The notes under the pieces were generated by a model. The model saw only the letters and a list, made by a program, of their open reading frames with translations, had not been told where the DNA came from and did not search any database. Shown in pieces: positions 13,656 through 18,573 of a DNA stretch of 64,000 nt (positions are counted from its first letter, which is position 1; every line of letters starts with the position of its first letter). The translations under genes and the position numbers were made by a program. This DNA comes from Candidatus Marinacidobacterales bacterium. GTDB lineage: Bacteria; Acidobacteriota; Vicinamibacteria; Marinacidobacterales; DATDRI01. The stretch covers positions 1,792,001-1,856,000 of the forward strand of contig CBDCNP010000002.1 of the NCBI GenBank assembly GCA_965219415.1. The letters run 5' to 3'.

Positions 13656-14990
13656 ATGCCTTACCGAATCCGGAGGACTTTCATGACCACCACCGGGAAG
13701 AACACTTCTTCGACCTTCCGCTACGCGACGGTGATGCTAGCCACGCTCGCGTTGTCTTTCTGGTTCGTAGCCGAAGCTAGTCAGCAATACCCAGGCCCGG
13801 GCGTGCGTGACCATGAAGAAGAAGAGGGCGAATCGATTCCCGAGCCAGCGGCTCAGGAGGAGACACACTGCAGCGGCGGCACGGCGGGCGCTTACCCATG
13901 CAAGAACGTCGACCTGTTGTCGTTCATACCGTTGAGTGAGATCGGGGGGGAAGGCGGAGCCCAGGGCGCAGACATTTGGGGCTGGACCGACCCGGAAAAT
14001 GGCCGCGAATATGCACTGATGGCGCTTTCAACGGGCACCTCGTTCATAGACATTACTAATCCCACCGACCCGGTATATCTCGGCCTGTTGCCGACGCAAA
14101 CCGTTGCCAGTCCATGGCGCGACGTCAAGGTATACAGGAATCATGCCTTCATCGTCTCGGAGGCCGCGTCCCACGGCATGCAAGTATTCAATCTCAAACA
14201 GTTGGGCAGAGTGACCGGCCCTCCGGTGAGCTTTTCCAGCACCGCGCATTATGCCGCGCAAGGTCTAAGCACTTCGCACAACGTCGCGATCAACGAAAAA
14301 ACCGGATTCGCCTACATCGTGGGCAGCAACACCTGCGCCGGCGGACTCCACATGGTCAATATAAAAAAACCCAAGGCGCCAAAGTTCGCCGGCTGCTACA
14401 GCGGAGACGGCTACACCCACGATGCACACTGCGTAGTGTACCGGGGACCGGATTCAGAGCATTCGAGCCGTGAGATCTGTTTTAACGCCAACGAGGACAC
14501 ACTGACGATCGTGGACGTGACCAACAAGAGCAACCCGCGCATGCTGTCTCGAACAAGTTACGCAGGGGTCGCTTATACACATCAGAGTTGGACCACGGAG
14601 GACCAGATCTATCTGCTTTTGGACGATGAGCTCGACGAGAGAACCGAGGGCAACAAGACGAAGACCTTTATCTGGGACATCGTTGACCTCGATACTCCCG
14701 AGCTCATCGGCACCTACACCGGCAAGAAAAAAGCTATCGACCACAATCTCTACGTTCGTGACGGCTTCGCTTATCAAGCCAACTATCAGAGCGGGCTACG
14801 AATTCTAGATCTAAAGAACATCGCTGATGGCAAACTGAATGAGGTCGCTTTCTTCGACACTTTCCCCGAAGGTAACCAAGCCCGTTTCAACGGGGCCTGG
14901 AGTAACTATCCGTATTTTCCAAGCGGTGTCGTCATCGTGAGCGGCATCGAGCAAGGGCTCTTCGTTCTCCACCCCCACCTGCCTCGCTAA
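13656..14990 (+). CDS. Choice-of-anchor B family (LVIVD-repeat) secreted protein
   Basis: YPCKNVDLLS, DIWGWTDPENGREYA, WRDVKVY..HAFIVSEA..HGMQVF, YTHDA and GAWSNYPYFPSG. Confidence 0.9.
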   Translation: MPYRIRRTFMTTTGKNTSSTFRYATVMLATLALSFWFVAEASQQYPGPGVRDHEEEEGESIPEPAAQEETHCSGGTAGAYPCKNVDLLSFIPLSEIGGEGGAQGADIWGWTDPENGREYALMALSTGTSFIDITNPTDPVYLGLLPTQTVASPWRDVKVYRNHAFIVSEAASHGMQVFNLKQLGRVTGPPVSFSSTAHYAAQGLSTSHNVAINEKTGFAYIVGSNTCAGGLHMVNIKKPKAPKFAGCYSGDGYTHDAHCVVYRGPDSEHSSREICFNANEDTLTIVDVTNKSNPRMLSRTSYAGVAYTHQSWTTEDQIYLLLDDELDERTEGNKTKTFIWDIVDLDTPELIGTYTGKKKAIDHNLYVRDGFAYQANYQSGLRILDLKNIADGKLNEVAFFDTFPEGNQARFNGAWSNYPYFPSGVVIVSGIEQGLFVLHPHLPR

Positions 14991-15056
14991 CCTCAACGAC
15001 TTCCGACTCGAGGCCGGCGAACGAGCCGAGGCCACCCGGTTAGATCGAAAACGGTA

Positions 15057-16046
15057 TCAGATCGTTCGCAGGCCGATCACCAGGGTCCGGTCGTCGCTCG
15101 GCTCGCCCGGAGAGAATCTATCCACTTCCGCGACCACGAGATTGGATACCTGCTGTGCGGACTCTCCATCCCTACGACCCAGGAGATCGCTCAACCTTAA
15201 CTCGCCGAACGGTTCTCCGGATGGATCCTCCGCCTCGGTGACGCCGTCGGTGTAGAGCGCCAACACATCACCCGGGCCGAGCACGATCGAGGTTTGCTCG
15301 AACTTCGCACCCGGCAGGATACCGACGACCGTGCCGGTTGCACCGAGCACCTCGACCTCGCCGGAGGCGCGTCGAATAAGAGGAGGGTTGTGCCCCGCAT
15401 TGACATAGTTCAACTCTCCGGTCTCATAGCACAACACTCCGTAGAAGACAGTGGCGTAGCGGCCGGGATGCGCGGTATCGAGAAGCTGCTCGTTGGCAGT
15501 CTTGATCAGCTCGGCCGGTGACAATCCTAACCGGGTCAGTGTACGGAACGTAGCCTGAAATGTCGTTCGCAGGAGTCCAGCCGGAATTCCTTTGCCAGCC
15601 ACATCGCCGATCAGGATCCCCACGCTCTTCGGGTCCGGTTGGGACAAGAAGTCGTAGAAATCTCCGCTCAGGATCCTGGAAGGCCGATAATGAACGCCGA
15701 AGCCGAAAGACTCGTTGGACGGGATGCGTCGCGGTAAGAGGGACCGATCCACTTCACGAGCGACTCGCAGATCATCCTCCAACCGCCTGATATCTGTCTC
15801 CTTCATGCATTCGAGGCACAGGCTAGTGGTCGGACTACCCAACAAGACTTCGTGCTCGACGTGCCCATCGCAGCTAGCGCAGGGGATCTCCGCATTCTCC
15901 TCGATGCGATGGAGGGCCTCTTGAAGGCTATCGAGCTCAGCGGCCGAGCTAGGTTCTGCCAACGACGCCTCGGATAACCATTCCAGAAGGCTCTCACGTC
16001 GCTCGCGAAGCAGGCCGTGGAAGAAATCAATGTCCGTCGTGTTCAT
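15057..16046 (-). CDS. PP2C/SpoIIE (RsbU-like) phosphatase with N-terminal DksA/TraR-type C4 zinc finger
   Basis: ALHRIEE...CASC...L.SP...LCLEC; catalytic SGDFYD, GDVAGKG, NAGHNPP, YTDGVTE and DDRT. Confidence 0.88.
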   Translation of the reverse strand: MNTTDIDFFHGLLRERRESLLEWLSEASLAEPSSAAELDSLQEALHRIEENAEIPCASCDGHVEHEVLLGSPTTSLCLECMKETDIRRLEDDLRVAREVDRSLLPRRIPSNESFGFGVHYRPSRILSGDFYDFLSQPDPKSVGILIGDVAGKGIPAGLLRTTFQATFRTLTRLGLSPAELIKTANEQLLDTAHPGRYATVFYGVLCYETGELNYVNAGHNPPLIRRASGEVEVLGATGTVVGILPGAKFEQTSIVLGPGDVLALYTDGVTEAEDPSGEPFGELRLSDLLGRRDGESAQQVSNLVVAEVDRFSPGEPSDDRTLVIGLRTI

Positions 16047-16048
16047 TC

Positions 16049-16828
16049 CTATCCTCGCTTCCGTTTTTGCGAAGTCCCTACCGGGCCTTTGGGATCTTCG
16101 AGGTCAATTCCCTCGATTTCAAAGAGAGTCCGCTTCACGTTCAGTCCTCCGCCGTAGCCCCCAATGGAACCGTCGGCTGCGATGACCCGGTGACACGGCA
16201 CAACGATGGCGACGGGGTTCTTGTTCAACGCTCCACCCACTGCACGGCAGGCCTGGGGTTGACCGATGCGACGAGCGATGTCGCCATAGCTCGCGCAACA
16301 GCCGAACGGAATTCGAGAGGTCACCGCCAAGACTTTCCGTTGAAACGGTGTCACATGCCGGAGATCGAGGGGAACTTCGAACCGCTCGCGCCTGCCGGCC
16401 AAGTACTCTTGGAGCTCCCGACGCTCCCGGTGTAGTCGGCGGGCGTCCGCCTCGGGCAGGAGTCCTCGACTCAGAAGGTCGTTAGCGAACTCCTTCTCGT
16501 TGGTCCGAAAGCCGATGCGGCAAAGCCCCCGCTCCGTTGCCGCCAGATAAACCGGCCCGAAAGACGCTGCCACATGACCGATGAAGGCATGACGCTCTCT
16601 GAACTCTTTCTCGAGCTTTCGGTGAGCGGACGGGAAACCCTTTTCGTTCGTTCGCTCATGTACCTCGAAAGCCGTATCCAACCATTTGTCCCGCTCGCCG
16701 TCCAGACGGCAGTCTTCGCACTCGCGACCATGAAGCTCGGCTCGCTTCCTGTGCTGGGCGCCCGCGTCGCCGGCTAAGATCGCGAGTTGAATCTCTTCAA
16801 ACGTCTGACAATCCATTTCTTCCTCCAC
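16049..16828 (-). CDS. ogt: Zinc anti-sigma (zf-HC2/ZAS) domain fused to methylated-DNA-[protein]-cysteine S-methyltransferase
   Basis: N-terminal MDC-x25-HGRECEDC (C...HxxxCxxC); C-terminal MGMT motifs TPFQRKV, IPFG, RAVGGA, NPV...PCHRV and GGYGGG. Confidence 0.88.
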   Translation of the reverse strand: MEEEMDCQTFEEIQLAILAGDAGAQHRKRAELHGRECEDCRLDGERDKWLDTAFEVHERTNEKGFPSAHRKLEKEFRERHAFIGHVAASFGPVYLAATERGLCRIGFRTNEKEFANDLLSRGLLPEADARRLHRERRELQEYLAGRRERFEVPLDLRHVTPFQRKVLAVTSRIPFGCCASYGDIARRIGQPQACRAVGGALNKNPVAIVVPCHRVIAADGSIGGYGGGLNVKRTLFEIEGIDLEDPKGPVGTSQKRKRG

Positions 16829-17338
16829 TTACTTACGTCGTCCCGCGAGGCCGCGCCTGATCTTCCCCATCGCTTGATAGACGTGGGCGCGGGCCGCTTG
16901 CTCAGTACAAGCCAGCGTCTCAGCAATCTCACGATAAGGCAGCCCTTGGTATTTTCTCTGCAACAACGCCACCCTCTGACGCACCGGGAGGGCGCGAACG
17001 ATCTCTCCGAGGCGACCGGCAAACCGTCTGGTCTCGACCAAACTCTCCAGGTCGCCATTGCTCTCCGCCAAATGAAGCGCCTTTTCTAGCGGCAGAGTCC
17101 GTCGGAGTTTTTGTCCACGTGCCAGGTTCAATGCGGAACGCGAGGCGATGCGATAAAGCCAGGCGCGATGATTCGCCTTGGCGGGTAGTCGGTCGAGGGC
17201 TCGAAAGGCCCGAAAGAAAGTGTCCTGCAGAACGTCCGCCGCATCCTCCGGGTTACCGGTCATGCGGTAGGTAAAGCGGTAGATCTCCTTCTCATACCAT
17301 GCCATGAGCTCTTCGAATCTCACCTGCAAAGGTTTCAA
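16829..17338 (-). CDS. ECF-type RNA polymerase sigma factor
   Basis: Region 2 DAADVLQDTF...AWLYRIA; region 4 LPVRQR...GLPYREIAETL; no C-terminal extension; GGGGG RBS before TTG. Confidence 0.92.
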   Translation of the reverse strand: MKPLQVRFEELMAWYEKEIYRFTYRMTGNPEDAADVLQDTFFRAFRALDRLPAKANHRAWLYRIASRSALNLARGQKLRRTLPLEKALHLAESNGDLESLVETRRFAGRLGEIVRALPVRQRVALLQRKYQGLPYREIAETLACTEQAARAHVYQAMGKIRRGLAGRRK

Positions 17339-17354
17339 TTCCCCCTTTACTGGC

Positions 17355-17381
17355 TATGACACGCGAAGGGTCTCTTTGTGA
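17355..17381 (-). promoter_or_regulatory. Candidate ECF-type autoregulatory promoter TCACA-N16-GTCATA
   Basis: Minus strand reads tttcaca-aagagacccttcgcgt-gtcata, ending 16 nt before the sigma start; resembles TGTCACA-N16-CGTC-type ECF promoters. Confidence 0.5.
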
Positions 17382-17427
17382 AAGATGGTTTGCGGATCTC
17401 GTGCGAAAGAGTGTAGACCTCCTTCTC

Positions 17428-18573
17428 ATGGCGCCTTACAGTCAGCTAGTGCAGTTGGGAATCCTCTTGACGGCCCTCGCCCAGACCCCCGCGCCACCGG
17501 GTGCGCGGGTAGAGCTCTACACCTTCGGGCCGGGCGAGGATGTCTTCTCCAAGTTCGGGCATGCGGCCATTTGCGTCTTCGACGAAAGGGGACTGGGCGG
17601 TCGCTGTTTCAACTATGGGAGCGCAGATTTCTCCACTCCCGGCCCGCTCACGTGGGACGTCGTTCGGGGCCGAGCCCGTTTTTGGGTATCCGTGGCACCC
17701 TTCGGAGAGATGCTTCGACTCTACTTGGCCGAGGATCGAACCATCTATCGGCAGCCGCTGCCGTTGACGTCGGAGCAGGTTGAAGAAATGAAGCAGCGGC
17801 TCGAGACGGCGGCCCTTCCAGAGAATCGCTACTACGCGTACGACCATTTCGACGACAACTGTTCGACCCGCCCCCGGGATCATATCGACGCCGTCACCGA
17901 CGGCGCTCTGCAGCGCAGGTCCACAAGCCATGGCTCCTCGTTCCGTGAGCTCATCCACGACAGCCTGGAGGATGATCCACTCGTCTTCGCACTGGTCGAG
18001 ACCTTCTTGGGACGCTCGATAGATCGGGAACGAACCGAGTATGAAGCGATGTTTCTACCTCGGATCTTGAGAGAGACAGTCGCCTTGCATCTGGGAGCTA
18101 CTCCTGAAATCGTCCACGCCCGAAAGAATCCTGCCTCCGCCGGGCTTCCCTGGCTCGGACCATGGCTAGTCACGCACCGTCGGGAATTGGGGCTGGCGAT
18201 TGGCTTGGTGAGCGCATTGCTCATCCTGCTGGGGACGCCTGGTACCTCTCGCGCACTTCGGTCCTTGTTCGGTATTCTCTTCGGAACCGTCGGTGTCCTT
18301 CTCGCGTTGCTAGCGGTCATGTCTCCGCTTCCCGAGCTTCGCTACAACGAGCTCTTGCTGCTGTGGCTGCCAACCGACTTCTTGTTGATCGTGTACTCGC
18401 GGCGGGTAACGATTTTATACACCGGCGTCCGATTGGCAGGCCTCCTGGCAGTTGGCCTTTTGTCCGCCTGGGGCTGGTTCCTACAGCCGTTGTGGACTTT
18501 CTGGACACTTGCGGCTTTGGTCCTCGGAGCCGTCTCTGCGCGAACGCTGGTTCGACCGGGTCGGTTAGGCTAG
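17428..18573 (+). CDS. DUF4105 (Lnb-like) membrane protein
   Basis: [36 protein letters not shown] and MFLP; four C-terminal TM helices. Confidence 0.85.

Follow-up and report, generated by a model that had tools for sequence, protein, structure and literature searches.

A 64,000-nucleotide stretch of an acidobacterial genome, referred to here as the window, carries a minus-strand operon in which an ECF sigma factor gene is followed by a gene that joins a zinc-type (ZAS-like) anti-sigma domain to a suicide DNA-repair alkyltransferase (MGMT). We propose that the two proteins form an autoregulated sigma/anti-sigma loop, and we infer its last step, in which capture of an alkyl group by the MGMT part would inactivate the attached anti-sigma. 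We give this reading a probability of about 0.45.

An operon of ECF sigma factor, ZAS-like–MGMT fusion and PP2C phosphatase

The architecture described in an earlier note made from the sequence alone, an ECF sigma factor, a ZAS-like–MGMT fusion and a PP2C phosphatase all on the minus strand, is borne out by Pfam and NCBIfam searches. The sigma gene (16829–17338, minus strand) encodes 169 amino acids from a TTG start preceded by aaaggggg, and its product matches Pfam Sigma70_r2 (5.5e-15) and Sigma70_r4_2 (3.5e-12) and reaches 90 bits against TIGR02937 (cut-off 42.9). The protein consists of regions 2 and 4 alone and passes the superfamily model at this length, as expected of group 4 ECF sigma factors. 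Orthologues sit 5′ of MGMT genes at 22 other loci, and the window protein is 27–32% identical to the sigma factors of four loci whose MGMT carries a short N-terminal extension (L040, L042, L045 and L070).

The fusion gene occupies 16049–16816 (minus strand) and encodes 255 amino acids from ATG 16816. Although the longest open reading frame begins at GTG 16828 (16049–16828), the protein database starts the 255-residue protein at ATG 16816, and GGAGG precedes this ATG, so the gap between sigma and fusion genes is more likely 12 nt than the 0 nt first claimed. The claimed 2-nt gap to the PP2C gene (15057–16046, minus strand; 329 amino acids, SpoIIE/PP2C family) holds. A scan of 14800–17600 returned no sigma-70-type promoter sites and one terminator-like site, on the plus strand only, a count below the shuffle mean.

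The MGMT part is intact, as the earlier note had stated. Both of its Pfam domains exceed their curated cut-offs: the N-terminal, ribonuclease-like Methyltransf_1N domain (residues 85–152, 16361–16564, minus strand; 2e-08, 35.1 bits against 21) and the C-terminal DNA-binding and alkyl-acceptor domain DNA_binding_1 (residues 157–237, 16106–16348, minus strand; 1e-32 in one search and 7e-33 in a second, 112 bits against 27). The fusion also matches TIGR00589 (2.7e-31, 107 bits against 46.4). The PCHRV active-site motif lies at residues 207–211 (16184–16198, minus strand), and none of P207, C208, H209, R210 and V211 varies among 42 sequences; Y177, R191 and N200 do not vary in that set either, and E235 hardly does. 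We take P207–V211, Y177, R191, N200 and E235 to be the counterparts of the catalytic residues of human MGMT. By its domains and active-site residues the fusion belongs to the O6-alkylguanine-DNA alkyltransferases (MGMT/Ogt), and alkyl transfer is predicted.

The third gene encodes a SpoIIE match (residues 139–324, 15075–15632, minus strand; 5.3e-51, 173.7 bits against a Pfam cut-off of 25) behind a C-x2-C-x17-C-x2-C finger recognized by its spacing (residues 56–80, 15807–15881, minus strand). C56, C59 and C77 of the finger are the same in all 25 relatives aligned; residues 1–100 gave no DksA-type match in Pfam, and NCBIfam DksA_like, which has a cut-off of 105 bits, reached 20.8. Across 114 MGMT loci examined, a PP2C gene lies 3′ of the fusion in the window, L036 and L038 alone, which rules it out as a universal third gene. 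Other locus classes have no conserved gene 3′ of the MGMT gene; a cupin, YCII, DUF192, an HTH protein, YqeY or convergent genes occur there.

The N-terminal extension resembles zinc-binding anti-sigma domains

Residues 1–75 of the fusion (16592–16816, minus strand) form the ZAS-type, anti-sigma-like domain, with four predicted helices. Counted from ATG 16816, its putative zinc ligands are C3 (codon 16808–16810), H29 (16730–16732), C33 (16718–16720) and C36 (16709–16711), all on the minus strand and spaced as C-x25-H-x3-C-x2-C. The earlier note had staked its proposal on conservation of HxxxCxxC in homologues. An alignment of 28 relatives (49–89% identity) shows all four ligands and PCHRV unchanged in every one, and a wider set of more distant N-extensions keeps H29, C33 and C36 in 12 of 12 sequences and C3 in 11 of 12.

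The HMM check that the earlier note had proposed succeeds for some relatives and fails for the window protein: Pfam zf-HC2 (PF13490) matches 7 of 42 relatives, at best with 4.9e-06, and the first 90 residues of the window fusion give no zf-HC2 match even at E ≤ 10. A profile built from 12 N-extensions returned eight matches in the PDB, the top four of them anti-sigma entries (RslA 3hug_B, 1.2e-3; RsiW 5wuq_C, 2.3e-3; DdvA 8rlz_A, 4.3e-3; 8rot_B, 0.072), and the significant matches are anti-sigma factors only. The AF2 model (pLDDT 84.9 for the whole fusion, 78.8 for the extension alone) places helices at residues 3–15, 20–32, 34–57 and 60–75, the last of which passes directly into a strand at 76–84. 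A Foldseek search of the PDB with the extension model gave no match at E ≤ 0.001, and its top rows include RsiW, MucA, ChrR and RslA; in VIA-align, MucA and RsiW reach Z 5.4 (RsiW with an rmsd of 2.5 over 57 residues), a score that unrelated helical chains equal. The top ESM Atlas cluster is named Methyltransf_1N + zf-HC2, with scores of 0.80–0.82 that fall below the 0.9 lead threshold. Its profile matches, predicted four-helix fold and place after a sigma gene support the view that the extension is a divergent anti-sigma domain.

Structure prediction of the sigma factor with the fusion gave an ipSAE of 0.55 (runs 0.55, 0.52 and 0.56), with 0.00 for the best of three controls; the runs share at least 85% of contacts, and partner pLDDT is at least 75. 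Of 80 solved complexes, 58 pass the mark set for ipSAE, as do 2 of 110 mismatched pairs; the passes at or below 0.60 comprise only 7 of the solved complexes together with both of these mismatched pairs. Because ECF/anti-sigma complexes have already been solved, the passing score may reflect likeness to them instead of binding. The model thus hints, weakly, that the fusion binds its sigma factor.

Sigma factor genes adjoin one lineage of MGMT genes

To place the pair in context we collected 114 distinct MGMT loci. The sample is biased: metagenomes were scanned with generic MGMT patterns, and the best 80 of 587 matches were retained. An ECF sigma gene lies directly 5′ on the same strand in 23 of the 114, and sigma and MGMT genes overlap by 4 nt in 17 of these 23. 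The earlier note had proposed a neighbourhood survey for conserved sigma–fusion pairs, and this one shows such conservation: ten ZAS-type loci have 700 nt or more of DNA on the 5′ side, and a sigma gene precedes the fusion in 9 of them, whereas one ZAS-type locus, L078, has no sigma gene within 900 nt upstream. In the MGMT tree, a single subtree of 42 rows (SH-aLRT 88) contains all 23 sigma-linked MGMTs, and the other 65 rows contain none. In a sister group, all 7 members have an Ada-like Cys4 module at the C terminus, which by its sequence is a second type of alkyl acceptor on the same scaffold.

A sample of the phylum gave an MGMT match in 352 of its 401 genomes, and among the 150 matches listed, the window protein and that of genome G157 (locus L009) alone align from the first 12 residues, a gain of one fusion locus; scanning genome contigs with the fusion protein as single query found two loci only. 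Some variants of the module have the putative zinc site, some lack it, and some bear an Ada-like Cys4 acceptor in addition; its range takes in Vicinamibacteria, a Binatia MAG and high-GC forms with short extensions.

The variants without zinc ligands bear on what could be sensed. Of the 23 sigma-linked MGMTs, 14 are missing the H-x3-C-x2-C ligands and keep both the gene overlap and the same promoter; therefore a signal shared by the whole set would be read by the MGMT part. Judged from these sequences, the ligand-less relatives argue against the ZAS thiolates as universal sensor and for the MGMT part in that role.

The same observation weighs on the reading in which the domain would work as a classical ZAS thiol switch. 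Oxidants or soft electrophiles, SN2 methylating agents included, would attack a Zn(His)(Cys)3 site, loss of zinc would release the sigma factor as in RsrA, and the MGMT would be the output enzyme, not the sensor. The invariance of all four ligands in 28 of 28 relatives fits such a switch, as does the finding that the profile search leads to zinc-binding anti-sigma factors as the nearest relatives of known structure. RsrA is known to respond to compounds that react with thiols, and the zinc thiolate of N-Ada is able to accept a methyl group; on the other side, in many ZAS domains, among them those of ChrR, RslA and RsiW, zinc plays a structural part and the domain does not sense redox state. 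The loss of H-x3-C-x2-C in 14 of 23 sigma-linked MGMTs that retain overlap and promoter counts against a thiol switch, which would also leave the covalent fusion of domain and MGMT in many lineages unexplained, and we regard it as unlikely. A further point in its favour comes from Corynebacterium, where one study reports that the putative MGMT gene cg0186 is up 1.91-fold in an rshA mutant (PMC3489674).

A second reading takes the pairing at face value. At 11 sigma-linked loci the MGMT extension has only 23–51 amino acids, equivalent to helix 4 alone, so the pairing may simply mean sigma-driven MGMT expression with no anti-sigma role. The sigma factor would then be controlled otherwise, by outside transcription, by phosphorylation that PP2C reverses or by another partner, and would merely drive MGMT; the extension would serve a structural or DNA-related purpose, or act as a constitutive brake without sensing. 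The short-extension class, with no recognizable anti-sigma core, speaks for this, as do the failure of the window fusion to match zf-HC2, the conservation of PP2C within the clade (3′ of the fusion in L036 and L038) and nine pairs of PP2C and fusion proteins on contigs of equal size. A 2022 review points the same way, counting group ECF122, in which MGMT genes adjoin the sigma gene, among those that have no cognate anti-sigma factor (PMC8999054). Against it stand the significant PDB profile matches to anti-sigma factors only, the invariant zinc ligands and the position of the MGMT gene right after the sigma gene, mostly with a 4-nt overlap, which is the canonical place of an anti-sigma gene. 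The window operon encodes neither a STAS protein nor a kinase that could serve in partner switching, and L009 and L046 have no PP2C gene downstream of MGMT. On balance we judge it improbable that the locus is an expression cassette and nothing else.

A conserved promoter probably directs the sigma factor to its own operon

Upstream of the sigma gene we read a −35-like element, TTTCACA (17377–17383, minus strand), conserved 5′ of sigma genes in relatives, and a −10-like element, GTCATA (17355–17360, minus strand), 16 nt after the first and 16 nt before the TTG start. The putative promoter thus runs TCACA (17381–17377), a 16-nt spacer, GTCATA (17360–17355), aaaggggg and TTG 17338, and GTCATA overlaps the longest-reading-frame ATG (17356) of a divergent plus-strand gene. 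At 17 of 21 loci the sigma gene is preceded by the pattern TCAC[AG]-N16/17-GT[TC], compared with a mean of 0.36 and a maximum of 3 in 1,000 dinucleotide shuffles. In these 17 loci the −35 form is T(T/C)TCAC(A/G), and relatives have GTTATA, GTTAGA or GTTACA as −10 element, likewise at a spacing of 16 or 17 nt. The TCACA-N16-GTCATA element singled out by the earlier note is therefore borne out as a conserved, probably self-directed promoter.

Searches of the organism's own 8-Mb genome with the strict and middle promoter patterns revealed no wider regulon beyond the operon. We counted 3 sites for the strict pattern, where about 6 would be expected, and 16 for the middle pattern, where about 38 would be. 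As the two other strict sites fall within open reading frames of 209 and 755 amino acids, the operon itself is the sole credible target of the sigma factor. A tether that docks MGMT on the sigma factor or holoenzyme for repair of transcribed or promoter DNA, with no inhibition, is very improbable: beyond the fusion itself and a weakly predicted contact nothing speaks for it, anti-sigma domains of known structure cover the surfaces by which sigma factors bind core polymerase, and a sigma factor whose sole credible promoter is its own leaves little DNA to which repair could be delivered.

Relation to known systems

The extension shares with RsrA–SigR, ChrR–SigE, RslA–SigL and RsiW–SigW the H-x3-C-x2-C motif, preceded at a distance of about 25 residues by a fourth ligand, and, as for ZAS anti-sigma factors, the gene for the helical domain comes directly after an autoregulated ECF sigma gene that it overlaps or abuts. 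It departs from them in its C-terminal partner, a cytoplasmic suicide DNA-repair enzyme in place of a membrane anchor, a cupin or nothing; in a sequence too divergent for Pfam zf-HC2; and in its proposed signal, which would be covalent consumption of the attached enzyme rather than thiol oxidation or outside proteolysis. Like E. coli Ada (a Cys4-Zn methyl acceptor, an AraC HTH and an MGMT), the fusion unites MGMT, a zinc-cysteine module and proposed own-gene control in one polypeptide, and an Ada-like Cys4 tail is present in a sister subfamily. Unlike Ada, it has neither Ada_Zn_binding nor an HTH domain by Pfam, and it would act by releasing a sigma factor, not by becoming a DNA-binding activator. 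The label Ada-independent, used in the earlier note, calls for a reservation: the genome also encodes a canonical Ada (Ada_Zn_binding, HTH_18 and DNA_binding_1) in a separate gene, L001, and a further MGMT.

Another precedent is ECF122. In the 2022 review, conserved 6-O-methylguanine DNA methyltransferases adjoin the sigma gene of this group, with the mechanism given as unknown; its example comes from Cellulomonas (PMC8999054). The main text of the Casas-Pastor et al. 2021 classification (PMC7826278) makes no mention of it. By the definition in the review, window-type loci share with ECF122 a conserved MGMT gene beside the sigma gene, and the short-extension loci, which have the same promoter motif as the window, resemble the ECF122 arrangement. 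The window differs in the ZAS-like domain on its MGMT and in its host, an acidobacterium. Given an adjacent MGMT that bears a ZAS-like domain, we regard the window module as a relative of ECF122 rather than one of its members. We found no characterized case in the literature of an ECF sigma factor with an anti-sigma–MGMT fusion, in agreement with the claim that no system of this design had been characterized; the pairing of sigma factor and MGMT as such is not new, being already listed for ECF122 (PMC8999054).

Proposed mechanism and implications

In the loop that we favour, the sigma factor would transcribe its own operon from a TTCACA-N16-GT(C/T)ATA promoter, yielding itself, an alkyltransferase with a zinc-type anti-sigma N terminus and, in this clade, a zinc-finger PP2C. 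At rest, the anti-sigma domain of the fusion would keep the sigma factor bound. Transfer of an alkyl group to the MGMT active-site C208 would spend the fusion irreversibly; the N- and C-terminal MGMT domains would separate and the protein would be destabilized, as in other alkyltransferases. Because anti-sigma helix 4 continues into the MGMT N-domain, the spent fusion would drop the sigma factor or be degraded. That alkyl transfer is the signal releasing the sigma factor is the step we infer. Freed sigma factor would yield more sigma factor and fresh MGMT until unspent fusion titrates it again, so that the suicide enzyme would be replaced in proportion to its use.

The destabilizing step is borrowed from alkylguanine transferases (AGTs) of human, yeast and archaeal origin. 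Alkylation of the active-site cysteine destabilizes the AGT fold, disrupts contacts between N- and C-domains and marks the protein for degradation, and in a Sulfolobus AGT it cuts the melting temperature by 20–35 °C (PMC10779285). There the consequence is disposal only, with no transcriptional read-out.

A wider reading, which we offer as tentative, is that the operon provides a second, Ada-independent alkylation response in which a suicide-enzyme anti-sigma serves as a stoichiometric damage counter, a new principle of ECF signalling. Were it true, every lesion repaired would irreversibly use up one anti-sigma and free one sigma factor, and the amount spent would be exactly resynthesized; this would explain how synthesis of a single-use repair protein can be matched to demand without Ada. 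ECF sigma/anti-sigma pairs are a major bacterial signalling route, in which the sigma factor is known to be released by proteolysis, by thiol oxidation, by partner switching or through a conformational change. An anti-sigma inactivated by its own enzymatic work would add a further release mechanism, and would offer a concrete one for ECF122-like groups listed as "mechanism unknown". With one promoter and two small cytoplasmic proteins, the circuit is testable in E. coli and may serve as a compact alkylation biosensor.

A conserved operon joins an ECF sigma factor to a putative anti-sigma::MGMT fusion

Three genes in the same orientation fill window positions 15057–17338 (−) and encode an ECF sigma factor, a fusion of a ZAS-like extension to an MGMT, and a PP2C protein, so that open reading frames together with Pfam and TIGR matches bear out the gene set described in the earlier note. 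The 169-aa sigma factor matches Sigma70_r2 (5.5e-15) and Sigma70_r4_2 (3.5e-12) in Pfam and TIGR02937 at 90 bits (cut-off 42.9). The fusion carries Methyltransf_1N (residues 85–152; Pfam 2e-08) and DNA_binding_1 (residues 157–237; 7e-33), with the PCHRV motif at residues 207–211, and these domains are preceded by an extension of about 84 residues in which C3, H29, C33 and C36 form a C-x25-H-x3-C-x2-C motif. The earlier note had proposed a scan for these Pfam families and for zf-HC2, but Pfam finds no family in the first 90 residues of the fusion even at E ≤ 10. The longest open reading frame of the fusion begins at GTG 16828 and abuts the sigma stop codon; however, the database protein is a 255-aa form starting at ATG 16816, with GGAGG five bases 5′ of that codon, and the sigma–fusion gap is therefore probably 12 nt rather than the 0 nt first claimed, whereas the 2-nt fusion–PP2C gap stands. 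All three genes keep their order in the closest relative that has a named record, a MAG of Candidatus Marinacidobacterales (Acidobacteriota, Vicinamibacteria) whose fusion is 91% identical.

The PP2C gene (15057–16046, −) starts 2 nt past the fusion stop and encodes a SpoIIE domain (Pfam 5.3e-51) and a C-x2-C-x17-C-x2-C finger at residues 56–80 with DksA/TraR spacing. C56, C59 and C77 are present in 25/25 relatives, with either Cys or His at the fourth position; the NCBIfam DksA_like match is weak (20.8 bits, cut-off 105). PP2C is likewise the next gene after the fusion in L036, overlapping it by 4 nt, and in L038, across a 223-nt gap, and is absent downstream of it in L009 and L046; no STAS or kinase partner lies within the operon. 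Nine further PP2C and fusion pairs share the same 'longest contig' figure (7,074,484; 17,807; 2,744; 4,975; 5,408; 6,142; 4,798; 1,874; 2,839), which suggests, from these figures rather than from locus views, that the two genes occupy common contigs across the Vicinamibacteria-type subfamily.

Sigma-linked MGMT genes form an old and clustered association

Neighbourhoods were pooled from a 401-genome phylum sample (30 loci), species-representative genomes (2), metagenomes searched with generic MGMT motif patterns (80, the best of at least 587) and paralogues in the window's own genome, giving 114 distinct MGMT-matching loci. Sigma genes were sought with an HMM derived from first BLAST hits; a match had to share the MGMT strand and end no more than 900 nt upstream. 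In this pool, whose metagenome share is the best 80 of at least 587, an ECF sigma gene lies directly upstream in 23/114 loci, and in 17 of these 23 the sigma and MGMT genes overlap by 4 nt. By the same search no sigma was detected in 75/114 loci, including L015 and L028, whose genomes are flagged unpublished and on which no claim rests. The sigma-linked MGMTs carry one of three extension classes: a ZAS-type extension of 84–92 aa in nine (the window, L009, L036, L038, L046, L062, L092, L110 and L114), a 64–65-aa extension without zinc ligands in three (L037 from a Binatia MAG, L039 and L095), and a 23–51-aa extension aligning to helix 4 of the window's extension in 11. Pairing of sigma with ZAS-type MGMT, for which the earlier note had proposed a survey, is conserved: nine of the ten ZAS-type loci in which 700 nt or more of upstream DNA is available have the sigma gene, and upstream DNA is too short to judge in L063 and L076. 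The tenth, L078, has no sigma gene in the 4.2 kb upstream examined. This orphan ZAS-type MGMT (L078:3971–4735, +) belongs to a low-GC organism; its first Cys is replaced by Ser, and a nearby His could stand in as ligand.

A quick-search maximum-likelihood tree of the 114 MGMT cores places all 23 sigma-linked rows together in a single subtree of 42 rows, whose SH-aLRT of 88 is below the 95 that earns a star, and none among the other 65. Ten rows without sigma also fall in this subtree. The association is therefore old and clustered, but was gained or lost several times.

The extension resembles anti-sigma domains

A word-indexed protein search with the fusion listed 120 of 7200 matches; among the first 38 rows (49–100% identity), 36 align over 92% or more of the query, showing that the extension is part of a family. 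In an alignment of 28 of these 36 close relatives, C3, H29, C33, C36 and P207–V211 are invariant. Across a broader group of 12 extensions from the loci, 12–86% identical to the window's, H29, C33 and C36 are kept in 12/12 and C3 in 11/12. The earlier note had allowed that the zinc motif might not be conserved in homologues; it is. In the MGMT part, Y177, R191, N200, C208 and H209 are kept in 42/42 relatives and E235 in nearly all, residues that we take to be the MGMT catalytic constellation. A further cysteine of the MGMT N-domain, C99 (codon 16520–16522, G-L-C-R-V/I), does not vary among the 28 close relatives, occurs in some short-extension forms and is missing from the Ada-tail subfamily described below.

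Although Pfam finds no family in the window's own extension, several other lines point to an anti-sigma domain, each modestly. PF13490 (zf-HC2) matches 7/42 relatives (best 4.9e-06). We built a profile from the 12 extensions; run against all PDB sequences, it gave eight rows at E ≤ 10, led by RslA (3hug_B, 1.2e-3), RsiW (5wuq_C, 2.3e-3), DdvA (8rlz_A, 4.3e-3) and a CHAT-domain entry (8rot_B, 0.072), with the anti-sigma alignments passing through the H-x3-C-x2-C helix. AlphaFold2 predicts four helices in the extension (residues 3–15, 20–32, 34–57 and 60–75; mean pLDDT 84.9 in the fusion, 78.8 for the extension alone), the last joining the first MGMT N-domain strand with no linker. Foldseek with this model found nothing at E ≤ 0.001, and RsiW, MucA, ChrR and RslA chains make up most of its top rows; an independent structure search scored MucA and RsiW at Z 5.4, equal to unrelated helical proteins.

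Complex prediction paired a 20-row sigma alignment with residues 1–88 of the 28-row fusion alignment. The predicted complex has an ipSAE of 0.55 against 0.00 for the best control, with runs sharing at least 85% of contacts and partner pLDDT of at least 75. It was graded as weak support: the mark is reached by 58/80 solved complexes and 2/110 mismatched pairs, yet at ipSAE ≤ 0.60 by just 7 of the 80 and both mismatches. As like complexes are already solved, the pass may reflect memory of them instead of binding. We consider a true anti-sigma function of the extension likely.

A conserved promoter motif precedes the sigma gene

The promoter element picked out in the earlier note lies at 17381–17355. 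Upstream of relatives' sigma genes we observed the same boxes, T(T/C)TCAC(A/G) and GT(T/C)A separated by 16–17 nt as in the window, and the pattern TCAC[AG]-N16/17-GT[TC] occurs in 17 of the 21 loci in which 97 nt or more precede the chosen sigma start, against a mean of 0.36 and a maximum of 3 loci in 1000 dinucleotide shuffles. These 17 are not independent, with close sets formed by the window, L036 and L038, by L040, L042, L045 and L070, and by L043 and L047, and the motif is found across all three extension classes. The pattern missed L009, L041, L062 and L111; near-matches are visible by eye in L009 (TTACA-N18-GTTGTA) and L062 (TGCACA-N16-GTCTTA), and in L041 the chosen start is probably too far upstream. 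In eight short-extension loci (L040, L042, L045, L070, L043, L047, L106 and L107) the −10 box ends 4–11 nt before the sigma ATG, suggesting leaderless transcripts. Three copies of the strict pattern are present in the window's own 8.05-Mb genome, where about 6 are expected, and the other two sites fall within long open reading frames, leaving the operon itself as the only credible candidate target. We regard autoregulation by the sigma factor as highly probable.

A divergent Lnb_N-domain gene (17356–18573, +) has its longest-frame ATG, 17356, within the sigma −10 box; Met at 17431, which opens a signal-peptide-like stretch, may be its true start. Inside this frame, about 30–50 nt upstream of the −35 box (roughly 17400–17420), a stretch of sequence is conserved in L036 and L038.

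Alkyl transfer as a possible releasing signal

Architecture, conservation and promoter are consistent with an autoregulated pair of sigma and anti-sigma, the latter fused to an enzyme that works only once. The module is a variant of known ECF/ZAS pairs and is related to ECF122, a sigma group for which a 2022 review records conserved 6-O-methylguanine DNA methyltransferases nearby under 'unknown mechanism', with a Cellulomonas example, and refers to a 2021 re-classification (PMC8999054). The arrangement was not found in the main text of that re-classification and its description must sit in the supplements. Full-text literature searches found no characterised sigma/anti-sigma::MGMT system, in agreement with the novelty claimed for the design, although a sigma–MGMT pairing had been noted for ECF122. 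An alkyltransferase review describes enzymes joined to EndoV or to a histone-like domain and does not contain the word 'sigma' (PMC10779285), and a Corynebacterium study lists a putative MGMT gene as mildly up (1.91-fold) in an rshA mutant (PMC3489674).

In the proposed mechanism, alkyl transfer to C208 would be the releasing signal. According to the same alkyltransferase review, alkylation destabilises alkyltransferases, disrupts contacts between N- and C-terminal domains and leads to degradation, and lowers the melting temperature of the Sulfolobus enzyme by 20–35 °C (PMC10779285). Because helix 4 is continuous with the MGMT N-domain in the AlphaFold2 model, such a change could travel through it to the anti-sigma surface. 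Fourteen sigma-linked loci lack zinc ligands, which argues against the zinc site as the common sensor, if there is one; these loci equally allow the rival explanation that sigma merely drives MGMT expression. For release triggered at the MGMT cysteine we give a probability of about 0.4–0.45. Module architecture, conserved pairing and a conserved promoter hold from the earlier interpretation, and it is methylation-triggered release that we infer.

The module coexists with Ada

A sister subfamily of seven proteins of about 320 aa (L114:2350–3318, L092:615–1574, L063:81–1040, L076:68–1039, P0125, P0223 and P0245) combines ZAS extension and MGMT with a C-terminal YC-x-P-x-C ... PC-x2-C-(R/H)-P tail (7/7). 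Pfam matches this tail to the second half of Ada_Zn_binding in L114 (24.0 bits, cut-off 23) and, under the cut-off, in L092 (20.6 bits); one anti-sigma scaffold would thereby bear up to three cysteine-based alkyl-acceptor or zinc modules. Among 1.84 billion sequences the extension profile matches 6440 representatives at E ≤ 0.001, of which 121 reach E ≤ 1e-10. An MGMT profile also matches 18 of the best 150, and by eye many of the others are short fragments ending where the MGMT N-domain begins.

The window's own genome also encodes a further MGMT (L002) and an alkyltransferase-like protein (L004:544–1761, −; G000:C3:287102–290323) fused to an Oxygenase-NA / 2OG-Fe(II) oxygenase domain, whose PWHRV motif has Trp where the acceptor Cys would stand. 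It contains a canonical Ada as well (L001:706–1788, +; G000:C3:5215046–5218285) with Ada_Zn_binding (7.6e-27), HTH_18 and DNA_binding_1. The module had been called Ada-independent, and by architecture it is separate from Ada, but it supplements Ada and does not replace it. Ada and a putative second design of alkylation response therefore coexist in this genome. The earlier observation is confirmed, and its interpretation holds in part.
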